64,000 nucleotides of DNA from positions 1 through 64,000 of IMG/VR virus record IMGVR_UViG_3300020048_003770; one strand, given 5' to 3'. Within the stretch, counting starts at the first letter, position 1, and each line of letters starts with the position of its first letter. Positions 1 to 63,390 of the stretch are shown in pieces. The DNA comes from a virus. Position numbers and translations under genes: made by a program. A model generated the notes under the pieces. It had not been told where the DNA came from. It saw only the letters and a program-made list of their open reading frames with translations, and searched no databases.

Positions 1-116
1 TCCCTGATGCCCTGCAAGCTTAGATTTCATGTTTTTCATGATTTCAAGCAACTATCAGGGCGGTCTCATAAGCCGCTGCGTAAGCCTAGGGAGTTCGAAT
101 CTCCCTCCCGCCACCA
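1..116 (+). tRNA. 3' part of an atypical tRNA, probably CAT anticodon (Met/Ile2), with a large hairpin insertion; 5' end outside window
   Basis: T arm GGGAG-TTCGAAT-CTCCC, acceptor strand TCCCGCC-A-CCA, arm GCGGT-CTCATA-GCCGC, extra hairpin CCCTGAT...ATCAGGG. Confidence 0.5.
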
Positions 117-8755: not shown

Positions 8756-9598
8756 TCATTTATAGATAATTTTATAGAATCCGATATGTCCATTTAGTGG
8801 CAAATTAAAAGAAAAGCGTGTGGTATTTACGACGACATTTGAATAAAGTATTTTAAATTCATCATTTAATGAGTGAGACCTATAAACGTCCATTAGTAAA
8901 TGGTTTGCTGGTGTTGCAGATGTTTCTACGGTTATAGTTAATAGATTATCTAAGCCATTGACCGACATTTTAATTATATTGTTATTGATTTCGGATAAGT
9001 TAAACACGTTAGATAAGTCGAAACTTTGTATATTTAATAAGATTAGTTCTGCCATTTCGGATTGAGACAAGAATAAACGTTGAATGGATGGGTCAGATTC
9101 TGAAATGGTCGTTATATCTTTTTTATAAAAGCTAATGGCAGTATTTATTCCCTTTCTATTTGGCAAGAATGTAGGTGAGCAAGGGATGGCAGGTTGGGTT
9201 AACGGGGTTAGAGGATTTATAAGTGTATTAGTTTCAGTACGGTGAGTATGTTCTATGGTGTTTCCTATGTACCAAGCGTCATAAGAGTTTACGGGGTTTA
9301 ATTTATGACCGAACCATATATAGTTATTCCCATTGATTTGTTTATAGCATTTATGGTTGTTGATGGTATATGGTTGTATTGCATAATAGCCTAATTTATT
9401 GGAGATATCAGAGTCATTTATTGATTTGATAGTTCCGTTATAGAGTTTCCATCGGTCTTGCCATATTTTGATAGATTCATTGAATGTTCCGGAGACAACA
9501 AGATATTCTGATACATTATTAGTAACATCCGTTTGAGCGAAAGTCATTATTTTGAGTAATGGCAGTAATAAGAAGGCTAATATCAACAATTGTTTCAT
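8756..9598 (-). CDS. Secreted hypothetical protein
   Basis: Signal peptide MKQLLILAFLLLPLL; C-terminal GFYKI. Confidence 0.65.
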   Translation of the reverse strand: MKQLLILAFLLLPLLKIMTFAQTDVTNNVSEYLVVSGTFNESIKIWQDRWKLYNGTIKSINDSDISNKLGYYAIQPYTINNHKCYKQINGNNYIWFGHKLNPVNSYDAWYIGNTIEHTHRTETNTLINPLTPLTQPAIPCSPTFLPNRKGINTAISFYKKDITTISESDPSIQRLFLSQSEMAELILLNIQSFDLSNVFNLSEINNNIIKMSVNGLDNLLTITVETSATPANHLLMDVYRSHSLNDEFKILYSNVVVNTTRFSFNLPLNGHIGFYKIIYK

Positions 9599-15731: not shown

Positions 15732-16104
15732 GAAAAAGGATATTGATTCTTTTTTTTGAATATATCTTTAGTGATTTAAAAAGATACAAATAATTCATGA
15801 AAGGTAAATGATAAAATGACTTTTTCACAATATAGTTTAGAACAGATAGAGTCTTTAACAAAAGATGATGCAATTTATAATCAGTTAGAACATCTTTTAG
15901 AACAAGATACTGACGAATTAGAAAACTTGAGAAAAGTCGCTAAAATCATGATTAAAGAGTTTGAATTGTCATATAAGGAATGGCAAAAAGTTATGTTTAT
16001 ACTTAAGTTAGCCAAAAGTTGTCATGAGTAAAATAGCCCATTTTGATTATTTAGGTGAAGATATGTTTTTTGAAAGATTAAAACAATCATTTTAAAAAAA
16101 AGCT

Positions 16105-18657
16105 TTGTCTCAAAGTATTTTAGATCAACTATCATTATGGAATCAGAGTTTCAGTACTAATCCTTCAGAAGAGTCTCTTGTTAAACTTAGGAGGATTTTA
16201 GGAGAAATAAATCAAGATTTTGATAAAATTTCATATGTGATTAGAAAAGGATTCCGTTCCTTTTCAGAGGATCTTATTCCAATGGCGAGAGAAGTTTTGC
16301 CATTGATTAACAATATCGATGTTATGAAAAATTTATTAGATCAAACAAAATCGTTTCTTGAATCTAATAAAGCTTCATTAATGCAAATAGATGCTAATCG
16401 AACAATTGATGAAAACGCAGGATATTTTGCTCAACAAGAAATAAAGAACCGTCTTTTATCAGATAATCTATGGAGAGTGGCAGATTATTTAATTACCTCT
16501 TTACAAAATACCAATATATCAAATAAACATATTCAGTTTATTAATAAAATTGCCTCTAATGAGATGGGTAGCGTAGTAGAAAAAATAGAAGAGGCAGATG
16601 AGGAAAGACAGGGCAAAATTCAAAAGCAAACGATGTATTCAATTTCTAATGCTAGTGAGTTGACTTTAAAAGTATTACGCGAAACGCTACAAAATGCATC
16701 TGATGCGGTTTTAGATAGTAGTCTTTTGAATTCGGGAAATTATACGCCTACAATAGAGGTTTTTACTAATACATTTGCTTTAGACGAACCTGATGAAAAA
16801 GCAATGGATCTTGTCGTTAGAGACAATGGAATAGGAATGGATGTCGATACTCTCAGGAATAAATTTTTTGTATGGTTCGCAACTGGAAAAGAAGAAAAGA
16901 AGGGTGATACTGGTGGATTTGGTATTGGTAAAAGATTGATTTTAGAAACACCAGAACAAGGTTGGTCAATAGCTACGAGAAATAATTTTTCCAATAAATC
17001 TTCTAGAAACTCTTATTTGTCGAGGAATAAACATGAAGTTGTTGATGATTTGGATTTATATTTCCCAAAGGTTGAAGCAAAAAACGGAACGACTTTAGCT
17101 TTATATTATTTGCCAGCAACTCAAAGTTATACAATAGAAACACTTTGTAAATCATATGCTACAAACTCTAGATTGAAAATAATACTTAATGGCATTCCAA
17201 TAGTTCCTGCTTTTCCAATTGATAAATTACAATTAATTGAATCTGGAGGAGATGCTATTTCTACTTTAGTTAGTAAGAACGAATATCAAGAAGGAATTGT
17301 AAAAGATTTAGTAAATAAGCAAGGACAAGATTTTTTAAATAATTTAGGAGGATTACATTTTGATCATGAAGGTAGCTCGACAGATGTAAAGTTTTATGTC
17401 GCTCCCGCTTCAGATGGTTTTTCTTCGGGTAAATCTTATTTTATGATGAATGGTAATTATCAGTTTAGTCGTAATGCGAATTTTCCAAAGGTGAATATAA
17501 TTTGTGATATTAGGAGTACAGCTAGACCAGATGATTCAGGATATCCTATGGATCAAAGTCGAGATAACGTAAGAGAACCATATAATTCTCAAATAGATAG
17601 TGTATTGGGAAAAGTCAAAGTTCTTTTAGAACAAATAACTAAAAGTCAAATTTTTCAAGATGGTCTAGAGATATATACTGTTAATGGAACTAGTTCTCCA
17701 TTAAGTACATCAACATCAAAAAAACAAGATGGTAAAGATAAATTATTACATTTCATGGGTCATTCAGATCTATTTAATAAAGAGAAATCTAGCAAACAAG
17801 AAATAATTCAAAGCGTTCAAGAAGCGATAAGAGTTTCAGACAGCCCTGAAAAAGTCAAGATATTACAGGGATTAGTTAATACCGTAAGAGAAATGGATGA
17901 CGATAAAATAATAAAACATGATGATTTGGGTACAATTTTAGACGGATTATCTACGCCATGTAATATTAATATTCAAAAGAATTTTGTTTCTAAAGAAATT
18001 GCCTATCAACGAGTAGATTTGACAAAAAATCTTATAATATTATGGAAAGAGATTATTGAGCTTATTATAGGACAATCTAATTTTATGGTTGGAAGGTGGG
18101 ATGAGAAAGAATATATTCCTGGATTGATATATTCAGATGAAGCGCTTGCCTTGTATTCTCCACCTTCGCATGGGAGTACGTTTCATTGTCTATCAATAAA
18201 TCCGATAAGTGTAGCCGCTATGTTAAATCCTTCAAGATTTGAAAAGGTTATCAGACAACAAAAACCAGAAACTTTCAAGGATCAAGTTCAATTTGAAGAA
18301 GAAAGTAATATAAAAACCGACAATACTCCAACAATTAAACTTACCAATATGTTATATCATGAAGCGGTGCATGAAGTAACTCACTTTCTATTCCCAGATG
18401 CTTCTTACGATATGGTGAATTTTCATAAATATATAACAAAAATTGAATATTTATGTGCTCCCATTTATGATGATATAAGGTTGGCTGTAAAAAGATATTT
18501 ACAAGGAATTAAGAAAGATAGTAATGAATTAATAACGCAAATGAAAAAAGACATGAATAATAAAAATGTTGAATCGTCTGTGAAAAATAAATTGACAATT
18601 AAAATGTCTAAAAAGAAATGGGAATCTATTGGTAAAATAGCAGGATGGATTTATTGA
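16105..18657 (+). CDS. GHKL (HATPase_c) ATPase with C-terminal HEXXH motif
   Basis: RETLQNASDA, DNGIGM, GGFGIG; HEAVHEVTH; C-terminal KMSKKKWESIGKIAGW. Confidence 0.8.
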   Translation: MSQSILDQLSLWNQSFSTNPSEESLVKLRRILGEINQDFDKISYVIRKGFRSFSEDLIPMAREVLPLINNIDVMKNLLDQTKSFLESNKASLMQIDANRTIDENAGYFAQQEIKNRLLSDNLWRVADYLITSLQNTNISNKHIQFINKIASNEMGSVVEKIEEADEERQGKIQKQTMYSISNASELTLKVLRETLQNASDAVLDSSLLNSGNYTPTIEVFTNTFALDEPDEKAMDLVVRDNGIGMDVDTLRNKFFVWFATGKEEKKGDTGGFGIGKRLILETPEQGWSIATRNNFSNKSSRNSYLSRNKHEVVDDLDLYFPKVEAKNGTTLALYYLPATQSYTIETLCKSYATNSRLKIILNGIPIVPAFPIDKLQLIESGGDAISTLVSKNEYQEGIVKDLVNKQGQDFLNNLGGLHFDHEGSSTDVKFYVAPASDGFSSGKSYFMMNGNYQFSRNANFPKVNIICDIRSTARPDDSGYPMDQSRDNVREPYNSQIDSVLGKVKVLLEQITKSQIFQDGLEIYTVNGTSSPLSTSTSKKQDGKDKLLHFMGHSDLFNKEKSSKQEIIQSVQEAIRVSDSPEKVKILQGLVNTVREMDDDKIIKHDDLGTILDGLSTPCNINIQKNFVSKEIAYQRVDLTKNLIILWKEIIELIIGQSNFMVGRWDEKEYIPGLIYSDEALALYSPPSHGSTFHCLSINPISVAAMLNPSRFEKVIRQQKPETFKDQVQFEEESNIKTDNTPTIKLTNMLYHEAVHEVTHFLFPDASYDMVNFHKYITKIEYLCAPIYDDIRLAVKRYLQGIKKDSNELITQMKKDMNNKNVESSVKNKLTIKMSKKKWESIGKIAGWIY

Positions 18658-19940: not shown

Positions 19941-20015
19941 TAGGGATGAGGTGTAATGGTTTGCACATCTCGTTTGGGTCGAGAGGGAGGAGTTCGAGTC
20001 TCACATCCTTAACCA
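19941..20015 (+). tRNA. tRNA-Pro(TGG)
   Basis: Arm TCTCG-TTTGGGT-CGAGA, acceptor AGGGATG/CATCCTT, CCA. Confidence 0.82.
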
Positions 20016-46519: not shown

Positions 46520-46609
46520 AAAATAGTTCTTGATTTTTAAAATATTTCTGTTACAATTGGAAAATAAATAAAGGAATATTTAACAGAAATATAGAAACTA
46601 GATTGGAAC

Positions 46610-46702
46610 ATGAATATGAACAAGCAAATAATAGGTATAGGAATAGCGGGAGCCTGCGGCGGAGCTGCAAGGCTACGGACTTTCTATGTCTGTTTATGCT
46701 AA
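46610..46702 (+). CDS. Ile(ATA)/Gly/Ala-rich attenuator leader peptide MNMNKQIIGIGIAGACGGAARLRTFYVCLC
   Basis: Codons 7-20 are I,G,A except one C; all four Ile are ATA; downstream tRNA-Ala, -Gly and a TAT-anticodon RNA. Confidence 0.87.
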   Translation: MNMNKQIIGIGIAGACGGAARLRTFYVCLC

Positions 46703-46724
46703 ATGATATAACAGATTAAAAAAT

Positions 46725-46760
46725 AGAGAGTCCGATAAACTAATGGTTTGTCGGACTTTT
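46725..46760 (+). terminator. Attenuator terminator 4
   Basis: AGAGTCCGATAAAC/GTTTGTCGGACTTT; 5' arm pairs alternatively with CGGACTTTCTAT 46676-46687. Confidence 0.85.
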
Positions 46761-46970
46761 GCTTTATAAGGAGAAAATGGGTAGGAAAAAGAGTCAAAAA
46801 AGGAAAAACACGAATGTCGTAAAGAACGAAATGGTTTTTCTTAGGTGCTTTGAATTGCTGGGAGCATAAACGGTTCTGTCTTCTCTAAAACAAAGGCGGA
46901 ACCGAATGAAACAGGAAGGAAACAATTTTATGAATATCAAACGCAAGGACTGTATAAATGTGAAAGATGG

Positions 46971-47213
46971 ATGTCTGGTAAACTCGATCCGTACTTTTTT
47001 GTTCTTAAACATGGTAAACATCAATTTGATTTAATAACTAGCGAATATGAGCAGAGATACGAAAACGGTTTGGATTGGGATGGATTATATCAGCTATGGA
47101 TGGATTGGAAAGGAGATAGATGGTTGTTGAGGCACGTTTTGAAATGGATGAAAAATTTGCCAGATTGGATAGATAAGGAAAGTGAAGAAATAGATTTGAA
47201 TATGGGGGCGTAG
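46971..47213 (+). CDS. hypothetical protein
   Basis: 80-aa ORF ending inside tRNA-Ala 5' end. Confidence 0.5.
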   Translation: MSGKLDPYFFVLKHGKHQFDLITSEYEQRYENGLDWDGLYQLWMDWKGDRWLLRHVLKWMKNLPDWIDKESEEIDLNMGA

Positions 47214-47277
47214 CTTAGTTGGCTAAAGCGTCTGATTTGCATTCAGAAGATCGTCGGTTCGACCCCGGTCGCCTCCA
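47204..47277 (+). tRNA. tRNA-Ala(TGC)
   Basis: GGGGGCG/CGCCTCC with G3:U70, arm TCTGA-TTTGCAT-TCAGA. Confidence 0.92.
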
Positions 47278-47371
47278 AGTTGACAAGCAGATTACTTCCA
47301 CGTAGTGTCAACTGGTAACTAAGAAATTAGGCTAAAATCTGCAAGTAACAAAAGAGAATAGAAAGGATAAT

Positions 47372-47620
47372 ATGAAGAAAGTTAATACATGTTTAACGGT
47401 ATATGATATGTTGGGACAGGCGTTGAACCATGAATGCAGCGGATCTAAAAGGTTTTCGCCTGATAATACCAAAGAGGATGTCGGAATAAAATGTCTGGAA
47501 TGTGACGACTCATTCAAGATATCCATTCGTAGACTGCGTAATACTATGAGAGATCCAAGATTGACTGAATTAGTTAAACAATATAAATACATGGATTTGT
47601 TGAAGAAGTTTGTTATTTAA
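47372..47620 (+). CDS. hypothetical protein
   Basis: RBS, CLEC. Confidence 0.5.
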   Translation: MKKVNTCLTVYDMLGQALNHECSGSKRFSPDNTKEDVGIKCLECDDSFKISIRRLRNTMRDPRLTELVKQYKYMDLLKKFVI

Positions 47621-47626
47621 AAATAT

Positions 47627-47701
47627 GCATCTTAGGTGTTTATGGACACACGCTAGGCTTCCAACCTTGAGTAATGGGATCGTTACCCATAAGATGCTCC
47701 A
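47627..47701 (+). tRNA. tRNA-Gly(TCC)
   Basis: GCATCTT/AAGATGC-T-CCA, loop CTTCCAA. Confidence 0.85.
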
Positions 47702-47937
47702 ATTTTAAATTAAGGATATTATGTTTAAATCATATAAGATCTTAAAAGAATGCAAATTAGAAGAGTCTAATTTGATTCAAATGTTGCGTGAAAATAAAGA
47801 AGGATTGACTATAGATAGGATTATGTTAATGGGTTTTGACAAATGGAACTCGCTTAACAAATTATTGGCTATGCAGAAGGTTAAAGGGATTAAACAAAAA
47901 AATGATCCTTTTGTTAAAGAGACTGTTATCGTTTCAT

Positions 47938-48022
47938 GCGGGAGTAACTCACCAATCTTATGAATTGGGCAGTATAATTAGAGTAATGGTGCATGTTGGT
48001 TCAAGTCCAATCTCCCGTACCA
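47938..48022 (+). tRNA. Non-canonical tRNA-Ile(TAT), anticodon hairpin nested in D arm
   Basis: GCGGGAG/CTCCCGT-A-CCA, T arm GTTGG-TTCAAGT-CCAAT, hairpin CCAAT-CTTATGA-ATTGG inside ACTC/GAGT. Confidence 0.7.
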
Positions 48023-48094
48023 ATTTTATTCAGAAATTCTATTTGTATTTTGTATAATAGAAATGTTGAAATAAAACATAAATTGGAGGTAATA

Positions 48095-54058: not shown

Positions 54059-54192
54059 GGGGAAGTAGCCAAATGGAAAGGCACTATTATTCGGAAATAG
54101 CAAACAGCGATTATTACTTAAATTGTTTAATAGCAATTTCTTATCTAAACGCTTACAAACTTTTGGGGGTTCGATTCCCTCCTTCCCCACCA
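54059..54192 (+). ncRNA. tRNA-like/Y-like RNA 1 (about 70-nt module in variable arm)
   Basis: GGGGAAG/CTTCCCC-A-CCA, D arm, T arm, module AGCG...ACTT-stem-CTTAT...CGCT-TACAAAC. Confidence 0.8.
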
Positions 54193-54282
54193 CTTTAAAA
54201 TAATTAAAATAAATATTGATTTTTGAAATAATATTTGTATAATAATGATACGAAACGATTTACTTGATCTTTAATAATTTAT

Positions 54283-54418
54283 GGAGAGGACGCCTAACGG
54301 TAGGGCACTATTCAGTTAAAATAGCAAAAATACAGCGATTATGCCTTCAATTGTTTAACCGCAATTGCTTTATGAACGCTTACAAACATATTAGGTTCGA
54401 CTCCTAAACTCTCCACCA
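54283..54418 (+). ncRNA. tRNA-like/Y-like RNA 2 (paralog of RNA 1)
   Basis: GGAGAG/CTCTCC-A-CCA, same module, different anticodon loop. Confidence 0.8.
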
Positions 54419-54872: not shown

Positions 54873-55011
54873 CCAACAATCCCTTATTCAATGCTTACAA
54901 ACCGCGAATATAGCTCATTTGGTTAGAGCATTGTCCTTAAAAAACAAACGTAGAGGGTTCAAATCCTTCTATTTGCACCAAAAATAAAGCATTTACAACT
55001 TGGATTGTTGG
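54873..55011 (+). ncRNA. Y-like RNA 4 (terminal stem enclosing full tRNA body 54904-54980, loop TAA)
   Basis: CCAACAATCC/GGATTGTTGG; GCGAATA/TATTTGC-A-CCA inside. Confidence 0.8.
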
Positions 55012-63270: not shown

Positions 63271-63390
63271 GCCAAAGATGCTTAGGAGTTCGATTCTCCT
63301 TCGTTCCATTTGACGGGACGGATGGTTCACAAAGTGCTACGGTGACACGGTTCGCTACTGTATCGGGTTCGATTCCCGACTTTGGCTCCA
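63271..63390 (+). ncRNA. Expanded tRNA-like RNA with two T-arm-like hairpins
   Basis: GCCAAAG/CTTTGGC-T-CCA; AGGAG-TTCGATT-CTCCT and TCGGG-TTCGATT-CCCGA. Confidence 0.6.

Follow-up and report, generated by a model that had tools for sequence, protein, structure and literature searches.

A predicted attenuator with ATA-only isoleucine codons precedes a phage tRNA operon that carries a re-wired tRNA-Ile(UAU)-like RNA

The virus record IMGVR_UViG_3300020048_003770 in IMG/VR is linear and 161,288 bp long, with 34% G+C and a completeness of about 87%. All tRNA genes of the record are confined to its first 64 kb, and this stretch of 64,000 nucleotides (here, the window, to which coordinates without a prefix refer) was analysed. 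The subject of this report is one of its tRNA cassettes, cassette 4. On the plus strand it contains a promoter, a leader open reading frame (ORF) in which codons for Ile, Gly, and Ala form a run, an intrinsic terminator, genes for tRNA-Ala(UGC) and tRNA-Gly(UCC), and an RNA with the anticodon UAU (here, the TAT RNA). No close relative was found among GenBank phages: BLAST searches with the region returned matches at the tRNA level only, and the helicase is at most 31% identical to its best match there. Protein-seeded scans of IMG/VR did not find relatives either. Nearly identical or related DNA was seen in contigs from aquatic, soda-lake, lake-water, and other metagenome runs, and relatives of the region (contigs labelled L003 and so on) were reached through homologues of a downstream 291-aa protein, their flanks showing 80 to 88% nucleotide identity.

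The leader ORF (46610 to 46702; translation MNMNKQIIGIGIAGACGGAARLRTFYVCLC) has 28 to 30 codons, depending on whether 46616 or 46610 is taken as the start. The true conserved start is the second ATG, at 46616 (46616 to 46702; translation MNKQIIGIGIAGACGGAARLRTFYVCLC), which is kept in all relatives; the in-frame ATG at 46610 is limited to some haplotypes and is missing from L004 and L016. An exact scan for the leader gave no match. Codons 5 to 18 form a sensor run of 14 codons (46628 to 46669; ATA ATA GGT ATA GGA ATA GCG GGA GCC TGC GGC GGA GCT GCA), with Ile, Gly, or Ala at 13 of the 14 positions. An earlier reading of the window, made from the sequence only, had pointed out that every Ile codon of this leader is ATA, and codon reading confirms it (4/4, p=0.018 given that ATA makes up 37% of the genome's Ile codons, or 1338 codons in ORFs of at least 100 aa). 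The corresponding run of cassette 2, which lies before a tRNA-Ile(GAU) gene, has no ATA among five Ile codons (two ATC and three ATT). The difference is significant by Fisher's test (p=0.008), and p rises to 0.024 when an ATA ahead of that run, at codon 3 of the cassette 2 leader, is counted. The same reading counted GGA at three of the five Gly codons (GGT, GGA, GGA, GGC, GGA). The count is right, but it lies within chance (p about 0.27 at a genomic GGA share of 37%), and the four Ala codons (GCG, GCC, GCT, GCA) are one of each kind and carry no codon-level signal. Of the isoacceptor-level matching that had been proposed, the Ile part is thus upheld and the Gly and Ala parts are not: codon-level matching holds for Ile only.

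At the amino acid level, the correspondence between leaders and downstream tRNAs exceeds chance. The Ile/Gly/Ala run ranks first among the genome's 844 small ORFs for the set {A,G,I}, and four leaders (N/Q, I/H/P/E, I/G/A, and K/T/V) are each top-ranked among these ORFs for their own downstream tRNA set. The run ..INQQNNQQNQN.. precedes tRNAs for Asn, Gln, and Asn; ..IHIPEHIEIPEPI.. precedes His, Ile(GAU), Glu, and Pro(UGG); ..FSFFSF.. precedes Phe; and ..KTKTVEKATVFKKTV.. precedes Lys(UUU), Val, Thr, and Thr. The tRNA-Pro(UGG) gene (19942 to 20015), which ARAGORN does not call and which scores 37.3 bits in Rfam, completes the His/Ile/Glu/Pro set of cassette 2.

A consensus scan places the promoter of cassette 4 at 46523 to 46557. 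The motif ATAGTTCTTGATTTTT overlaps the -35 element TTGATT (46530 to 46535), which is followed by a 16-nt spacer that includes TG and by the -10 element TACAAT (46552 to 46557). The promoter-associated motif ATAGTTCTTGNTTWTT occurs six times in the window (at 2196, 18660, 46523, 49321, 60139, and 61601) against 0.09 copies expected, and it also heads cassettes 2 and 5.

When the RNA from 46610 to 46757 is folded freely, the early sensor codons (strand 1, 46630 to 46643) pair with 46681 to 46694, and the intrinsic terminator forms as well. This terminator (3:4, 46729 to 46766) has a 13-bp stem (46729 to 46741 with 46745 to 46757), the loop AAU, and then UUUUGCUUU. With a ribosome masking the early sensor codons (up to 46654), the minimum free energy (MFE) structure flips to an antiterminator hairpin (2:3, 46677 to 46733), in which 46677 to 46687 pair with 46723 to 46733 and inner helices join 46688 to 46694 with 46710 to 46716 and 46695 to 46697 with 46706 to 46708. 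The leader stop codon (46700 to 46702) sits in the loop of this hairpin, which ties up five bases at the start of the terminator's 5' arm (46729 to 46733); what remains of the terminator is then an 8-bp hairpin that is 5 nt away from the U tract. A mask at the stop codon leaves the terminator alone. A ribosome that stalls at the end of the sensor run covers strand 2 without causing antitermination, which makes the early ATA codons the best-placed sensors. The antiterminator duplex is stronger than in any of 300 dinucleotide shuffles (z=-4.4, no shuffle as good), and the antiterminator complementarity of sister cassettes gave z=-6.0, -5.2, and -2.1. Two sister cassettes also show weak, sub-threshold Rfam matches, one with 28 bits to Thr_leader and one with 26 bits to Phe_leader. 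We consider it very probable that the leader of cassette 4 is a ribosome-mediated attenuator, in which the folding model predicts read-through that depends on stalling.

Variation among relatives and metagenome contigs bears on this assignment. Between the window and L010 there is no substitution from 46616 to 46757, while the flanks are about 80 to 81% identical, and the leader coding sequences of L008 to L010 are the same as that of the window, with 46616 to 46757 free of substitutions in all three. L004 and L005 start at the second ATG and have unchanged sensor codons; their CTA-to-TTG change is synonymous and preserves pairing. The four natural changes in other relatives fall at loop positions or convert G.U to A-U; G>A at 46728 turns a G.U pair of the antiterminator into A-U, G>A at 46750 turns a U.G pair of the terminator into U-A, and an extra A lands in the loop. 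Metagenome contigs differ from the window at 5 to 6 positions in the leader region, again in loops or from G.U to A-U in the antiterminator and terminator, against 41 to 44 positions in the neighbouring 82-aa ORF. A diverged leader, that of L016 (MNKQIIDIGIAIAGGGAA...), stays within Ile(ATA), Gly, and Ala, plus one Asp: a Gly codon has become a fifth ATA by two base changes, and the stray Cys codon has become Gly. The leader haplotypes seen contain 4, 4, 4, and 5 ATA codons, and none contains ATT or ATC.

These data also speak to the alternative that the ORF encodes a genuine small hydrophobic peptide, such as a glycine-zipper membrane peptide, and that its codon match is a coincidence. The segment IIGIGIAGACGGAA does look like a membrane segment, and the sequence is kept in several relatives, but the conservation is at the nucleotide level and includes synonymous sites. 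Moreover, L016 alters four residues and introduces Asp in the middle of the run, a Leu-to-Ser change occurs in the tail elsewhere, the runs of the four other cassettes are hydrophilic and match their own tRNAs, and the geometry of terminator and antiterminator overlaps the ORF. A coincidental match of this kind appears highly improbable.

Downstream of the attenuator, the window has a specific insert of 420 bp (46781 to 47200) with small ORFs (e.g., 46971 to 47213), for which BLAST found a match in no relative; in the relatives, tRNA-Ala begins about 20 nt past the terminator. The sequence-only reading had placed tRNA-Ala(TGC), tRNA-Gly(TCC), and a TAT-anticodon RNA behind the leader, and all three are found there. 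The tRNA-Ala(UGC) gene (47204 to 47277; ARAGORN, 47203 to 47278; Rfam, 64.7 bits) has G3.U70 and A73 and does not encode CCA, and the tRNA-Gly(UCC) gene (47627 to 47701; ARAGORN; Rfam, 36.6 bits) does encode CCA. Between them lies a CxxC-type ORF of 82 aa (47372 to 47620), which is kept in most relatives. It is followed, after tRNA-Gly, by an ORF of 80 aa (orf80, 47721 to 47963), the final 26 nt of which overlap the TAT RNA. None of the operon's small ORFs, the 82-aa ORF included, matched a family in PHROGs.

The TAT RNA (47938 to 48022, 85 nt) matches the Rfam tRNA model (RF00005) with 31.1 bits against a gathering threshold of 29 in a 2-kb local scan, and it is absent from the lists for the whole window, whether at the gathering threshold or at E values up to 5. 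In the Rfam alignment, a few bases stand in place of the D arm, and 23 extra bases precede the T arm. ARAGORN never calls it in its standard, low-threshold, or intron modes, and the mitochondrial mode calls another span. Exact scans for its anticodon arm gave only two chance matches. A 7-bp acceptor stem (47938 to 47944 with 48012 to 48018) is followed by U8 and A9 (47945 to 47946). There is no D stem-loop, as only 7 nt separate the acceptor from the anticodon stem (47952 to 47956 with 47964 to 47968). The sequence ACUC within this interval pairs instead with GAGU on the far side of the anticodon arm, forming a helix around it (here, helix X; 47947 to 47950 with 47981 to 47984). The anticodon loop is CUUAUGA, with the anticodon at 47959 to 47961. 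Then come a linker (47969 to 47980), the 3' strand of helix X, a D-loop-like AAUGGUG (47985 to 47991), CAU (47992 to 47994), the T arm (47995 to 48011), A73 (48019), and CCA (48020 to 48022). The AAUGGUG-CAU segment resembles the 5' D-stem strand plus D loop of the phage's ordinary tRNAs. The T arm is canonical, with GGUUCRA; the anticodon loop has 7 nt, with U33 and a purine at position 37; and CCA is encoded.

A scan of IMG/VR with a pattern anchored on the anticodon (CTTATR, 12 to 36 nt, WAATGG, 4 to 12 nt, GGTTCRANYCC) returned 79 loci, and the full layout is common to 24 distinct sequences of 75 to 83 nt. Their order of elements is acceptor, UA, 5' strand of helix X, anticodon arm, linker, 3' strand of helix X, UAAUGGU..CAU, T arm, acceptor, and A73. 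The window copy fits this layout and aligns end to end with the 24 other distinct sequences in our alignment, A2, to which the L006 copy was also aligned. Over the four helices of A2, 96% of cells are paired, and 17 of the 20 pairs vary on both sides. The covariation score reaches 0.78; shuffles gave 0.20 (0/500 as high), and sliding the partners gave 0.07 to 0.17. In helix X, 98.7% of cells are paired. Columns 12/46 and 13/45 vary on both sides in 13 and 12 sequences, respectively; one pair is CG in 10, GC in 7, UA in 6, and UG in 2 sequences, and the next is GC in 12 and CG in 11, with AU also present. Thermodynamics alone is neutral on helix X, and we accept it on the strength of its covariation. 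U8, A9, the loop sequence CUUAU (C32 to U36), GUAAUGGU, and A73 are invariant in A2. A scaffold scan that is blind to the anticodon found 24 loci, 22 of which were already in the anchored set; one of the two new loci (L105) has the anticodon GAU, which also belongs to Ile. Most members of the family have a short linker and no extra arm.

To judge from sequence and covariation, the family retains the core elements of a tRNA, joined differently. Going by strand polarity, helix X may stand in for the D stem, its 5' strand for positions 22 to 25 and its 3' strand for positions 10 to 13. The TAT RNA is very probably a functional member of a conserved, structured family with Ile anticodons. The view that it is D-armless junk is ruled out by the conserved and covarying set of 24 IMG/VR sequences. 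As a mark of Ile identity, G1.U72 was considered and rejected; the pair also occurs in the Lys and Val tRNAs.

A second RNA of the window, at 210 to 289, resembles a paralogue. It has a perfect acceptor stem, a T arm, A73, and CCA without a D hairpin, and it has the CUACGAA loop of tRNA-Arg(ACG). A helix X (AAC/GUU, with two compensatory pairs) may form in it, followed by AAUUGGAUA-CAU. The family pattern misses this RNA, and its Rfam score is only 24.9 bits.

The composition of the operon varies among the relatives. In L008 to L010, an Ala(UGC)-like gene comes first behind the leader, then an HNH gene and a pair of tRNA-Gly(UCC) genes, and then a canonical tRNA-Ile(TAT), which has the loop CUUAUAA, A73, and CCA. 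L017, from a separate study, has the same TAT RNA allele as the window. L006 and L007 have a TAT RNA in which the anticodon loop is CUUAUAC, the anticodon stem contains a U.G pair, and the T loop differs; positions 37 to 39 are GAA in the window (47962 to 47964) and ACG in L006 (709 to 711) and L003. This mosaic of relatives indicates that the ATA-only leader is stable, while the third tRNA of the operon is a TAT gene of either kind or is absent. The HNH-endonuclease-like gene lies between the Ala-like gene and tRNA-Gly (L008:2293-3219, L009:2559-3485, and L010:5177-6103). In the L003 lineage, a fragment of an IS200-type transposase (L003:1-290) stands in place of the leader and tRNA-Ala. Metagenome contigs aligned to the window skip 46781 to 47370, 47344 to 48046, or 47706 to 48046. 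Mobile elements have a hotspot in this operon.

Is the TAT RNA a tRNA in function? Our working answer is that it probably decodes AUA. No canonical AUA decoder was found in the 161 kb of the phage, nor were IleRS and TilS, and the lack of such a decoder together with an ATA share of 37% among Ile codons gives a need that the TAT RNA would fill; that it is processed, charged with Ile, and used in decoding is a prediction from sequence. One alternative accepts the attenuator as real and takes the family as functional but non-decoding, either as a decoy or mimic (e.g., as bait for an anticodon nuclease or a tRNA-modifying enzyme of the host) or as a partner for a phage protein, with a re-wired core that would keep the RNA off the ribosome. 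A connectivity that is non-canonical and yet strictly conserved fits this idea, as do the other tRNA mimics with grafted modules at 54059 to 54418, a phage tRNA body whose anticodon changes between relatives, and the dispensability of the TAT RNA in several relatives. A decoder is better suited by the CCA, A73, perfect acceptor and T arms, and invariant C32 U33 UAU A37 loop of the family. The position of the TAT RNA among ordinary tRNAs and behind a leader written in its cognate codon, its replacement by a canonical tRNA-Ile(UAU) in the operon of relatives, and the Ile anticodon (GAU) of L105, the one scaffold match found without the TAT anchor whose loop was read, also speak against a decoy. 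We regard a non-decoding role as unlikely, though it is the most credible of the alternatives.

Other tRNA-like RNAs were noted in this phage group. Two RNAs of 134 to 139 nt (54059 to 54192 and 54283 to 54418) adjoin ThiF-like genes and are present in all relatives (e.g., L004:15802-15937 and 16028-16166; L006:8988-9121 and 9213-9349). In both, the variable region holds a conserved module of about 60 nt (..ACAGCGATTA..CAATTG..GCTTACAAAC), and they are probably tRNA mimics rather than tRNAs. A single tRNA body, constant in its acceptor, D, and T sequences, occurs with differing anticodon loops as Leu(UAA) in the window and as Leu(CAA), Glu(UUC), and Gly(UCC) in relatives (54904-54980 in the window; L004:16649-16725; L006:9839-9913; L008:10779-10855; L010:15385-15461), as if the anticodon were switched while the scaffold stayed fixed. 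Unannotated RNAs with an acceptor-like stem, a T arm, and CCA lie at 63271 to 63390 of the window and at 144386 to 144489 of the genome; the loop of the latter includes CAU and A33. The phage also encodes a transfer-messenger RNA (tmRNA) outside the window (genome positions 77314 to 77673, equal to L011:13314-13673; Rfam, 66.4 bits).

The explanation that we favour for cassette 4 as a whole, with a probability of roughly 60%, is an attenuator of the trp/his/ilv type that controls a phage tRNA operon with a re-wired, AUA-decoding tRNA-Ile. A sigma-70-type phage promoter would yield a transcript led by the 28-codon ORF. When the sensor run is read fast, the ribosome would reach the stop codon and cover strand 2, so that the 13-bp terminator forms and transcription stops at about 46760. 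A stall in the first two-thirds of the run, which holds the four ATA codons, would leave strand 2 free to pair with the terminator's 5' arm, and the polymerase would continue into tRNA-Ala(UGC), tRNA-Gly(UCC), and the UAU-anticodon RNA. With the last acting as a lysidine-independent decoder of AUA, the circuit would be a negative feedback on the capacity to decode AUA, along with Gly and Ala codons. The broader proposal that phages have a class of working Ile tRNAs with a re-wired core, made on demand here through an ATA-testing leader, we hold more tentatively, at slightly less than even odds.

Several observations weigh against this explanation. (i) In the leader region, the Shine-Dalgarno sequence is weak (GGA, 8 to 10 nt before the start), and a weak promoter-like site inside orf80 (47836 to 47865) could uncouple the TAT RNA from the attenuator. 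(ii) Nearest-neighbour energies do not favour helix X (-16.6 versus -16.8 kcal/mol), and in the long-linker subfamily, to which the window copy belongs, the MFE structure draws a variable-arm hairpin. (iii) Position 37 is G in the window copy and A in 24 of 25 family members; of the family loop C U UAU A N, the window keeps C32, U33, and UAU. In Escherichia coli, IleRS is sensitive to t6A37 and to the wobble base and charges a UAU-anticodon tRNA poorly, and a UAU tRNA misreads AUG on the ribosome (PMC3575796). (iv) The module is accessory: the operons of L004/L005 and L016 contain Ala and Gly tRNAs only, without a TAT RNA, and the skip from 47706 to 48046 in metagenome contigs takes in the TAT RNA. 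(v) In L003 and five contigs from other samples, an L006-type RNA is split after CUUAU by an identical insert of 189 nt. (vi) In other phages that carry the re-wired family, ATA-rich leaders are not enriched upstream (10/557 versus 48/3525). The association of the leader with the tRNA therefore belongs to this phage group and not to the tRNA family. The sequence-only reading had argued that the ATA-only leader implies a working tRNA. The attenuator, the canonical tRNA-Ile(TAT) of L008 to L010, and the conserved, covarying family with Ile anticodons go in that direction, but "implies" is too strong in view of ATA leaders kept without a TAT RNA, the anticodon-loop insert of one lineage, and the G37 of the window copy.

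The 189-nt insert (L003:971-1159; also in L018 and L020 to L023) is present in at least six samples. Its junction lies between positions 36 and 37, or 37 and 38 given a shared A. Its first 53 nt match window positions 1 to 53 in reverse complement, and BLAST of the insert found six identical copies and this segment of the window only. Window positions 1 to 53 abut, after CTGAT, a CAU-anticodon tRNA-like remnant (54 to 115). The insert is likely a small mobile element with the target T(T/G)AT, though it may be an intron. A group I intron finds no support: there is no Rfam Intron_gpI match at E values up to 1, and the terminal base is U or A, not G. The difference at positions 37 to 39 between the window and L006 may be a footprint left by the element, or it may reflect escape from a guide-directed nuclease belonging to the element.

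The same observations enter a further alternative, in which the family works as tRNA-Ile while the window copy is inactive or decaying and the leader senses either an AUA decoder that lies elsewhere or the tRNA-Ile2 of the host. Only the window-type allele has G37, bases 37 to 39 differ from those of L006 right beside the insertion site, the L003 lineage has both an interrupted RNA and an orf80 broken by a stop and a frameshift, ATA leaders persist without a TAT RNA in L004 and L016, and the record is only about 87% complete. Against this, all helices are intact, the change at position 39 keeps its pair (A-U versus G.U), L017 from another study has an identical allele, and no other AUA decoder was found within 161 kb. 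We find this alternative somewhat less plausible than a decoy.

Finally, the TAT RNA might read AUA but carry another amino acid, such as Leu, so that AUA would be partly recoded. The long extra region and A73 of the window subfamily could, we infer, attract LeuRS, and one report shows in vitro charging of a nematode V-arm tRNA-Ile(UAU) with Leu (PMC4300185). The short-linker majority of the family lacks the extra arm, one scaffold member has GAU, the other Ile anticodon, and relatives replace the TAT RNA with a canonical tRNA-Ile(UAU). Mischarging is accordingly given hardly any weight.

Several known systems come close to the favoured explanation. Multivalent enterobacterial leader-peptide attenuators of amino acid operons (ilvGMEDA, thrL, hisL, pheL, and trpL) and pheST share with cassette 4 the promoter-proximal ORF with regulatory codons, the mutually exclusive 1:2, 2:3, and 3:4 hairpins, and the intrinsic terminator. 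Unlike them, cassette 4 controls phage tRNA genes and not biosynthetic or synthetase genes; its signal would be the capacity to decode ATA rather than the supply of an amino acid, and its product would feed back on the sensor. T-box riboswitches of Firmicutes likewise couple the status of tRNA to antitermination of translation-apparatus genes, but they bind uncharged tRNA directly and do not need translation; an Rfam scan of the window found no T-box.

For the TAT RNA, the closest functional parallels are the tRNA-Ile2(UAU) of Mycoplasma mobile and a UAU suppressor of a Bacillus subtilis strain without tilS, both of which read AUA without lysidine (PMC3575796 and PMC3919564). Their loops have U33 and A37, as in most members of the re-wired family. 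They are canonical cloverleaves that need an adapted IleRS or ribosome, whereas the RNA of cassette 4 has a re-wired core and G37. The earlier statement that a UAU anticodon reads AUA independently of TilS is established only where IleRS and ribosome are adapted; the IleRS of E. coli charges such a tRNA poorly (PMC3575796). D-armless mitochondrial tRNAs and the engineered mini HisT similarly lack a D hairpin and have intact acceptor and T arms (PMC7609411 and PMC11551756), and a tRNA without a D arm is accepted by E. coli HisRS, EF-Tu, and the ribosome (PMC11551756). In contrast to these, the re-wired RNA retains the D-stem strands, U8, A9, a D-loop strand that contains GG and is A14/A15-like, and a base like U48, but joins all of them in a new order, and its family belongs to phages of bacteria.

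According to a paper of 2024, every known bacterial tRNA is a cloverleaf (PMC11551756), and phages do not figure in a review of non-canonical tRNAs from 2020. Our literature search, which covered few subscription journals, found no account of leader-gated tRNA genes or of a re-wired phage tRNA-Ile. If the favoured explanation is true, leader-peptide attenuation also meters tRNA genes, and does so at the level of a single codon, which would give the phage a codon-resolved feedback loop on its tRNA supply. The re-wired family would be a natural exception to the cloverleaf rule for tRNAs on bacterial ribosomes, conserved in many phages and tied to AUA. The leader would then serve as a functional label, within the genome, for non-canonical tRNAs that gene finders overlook, with a bearing on the annotation of phage tRNAs, the prediction of codon compatibility between phage and host, and the design of orthogonal tRNAs.

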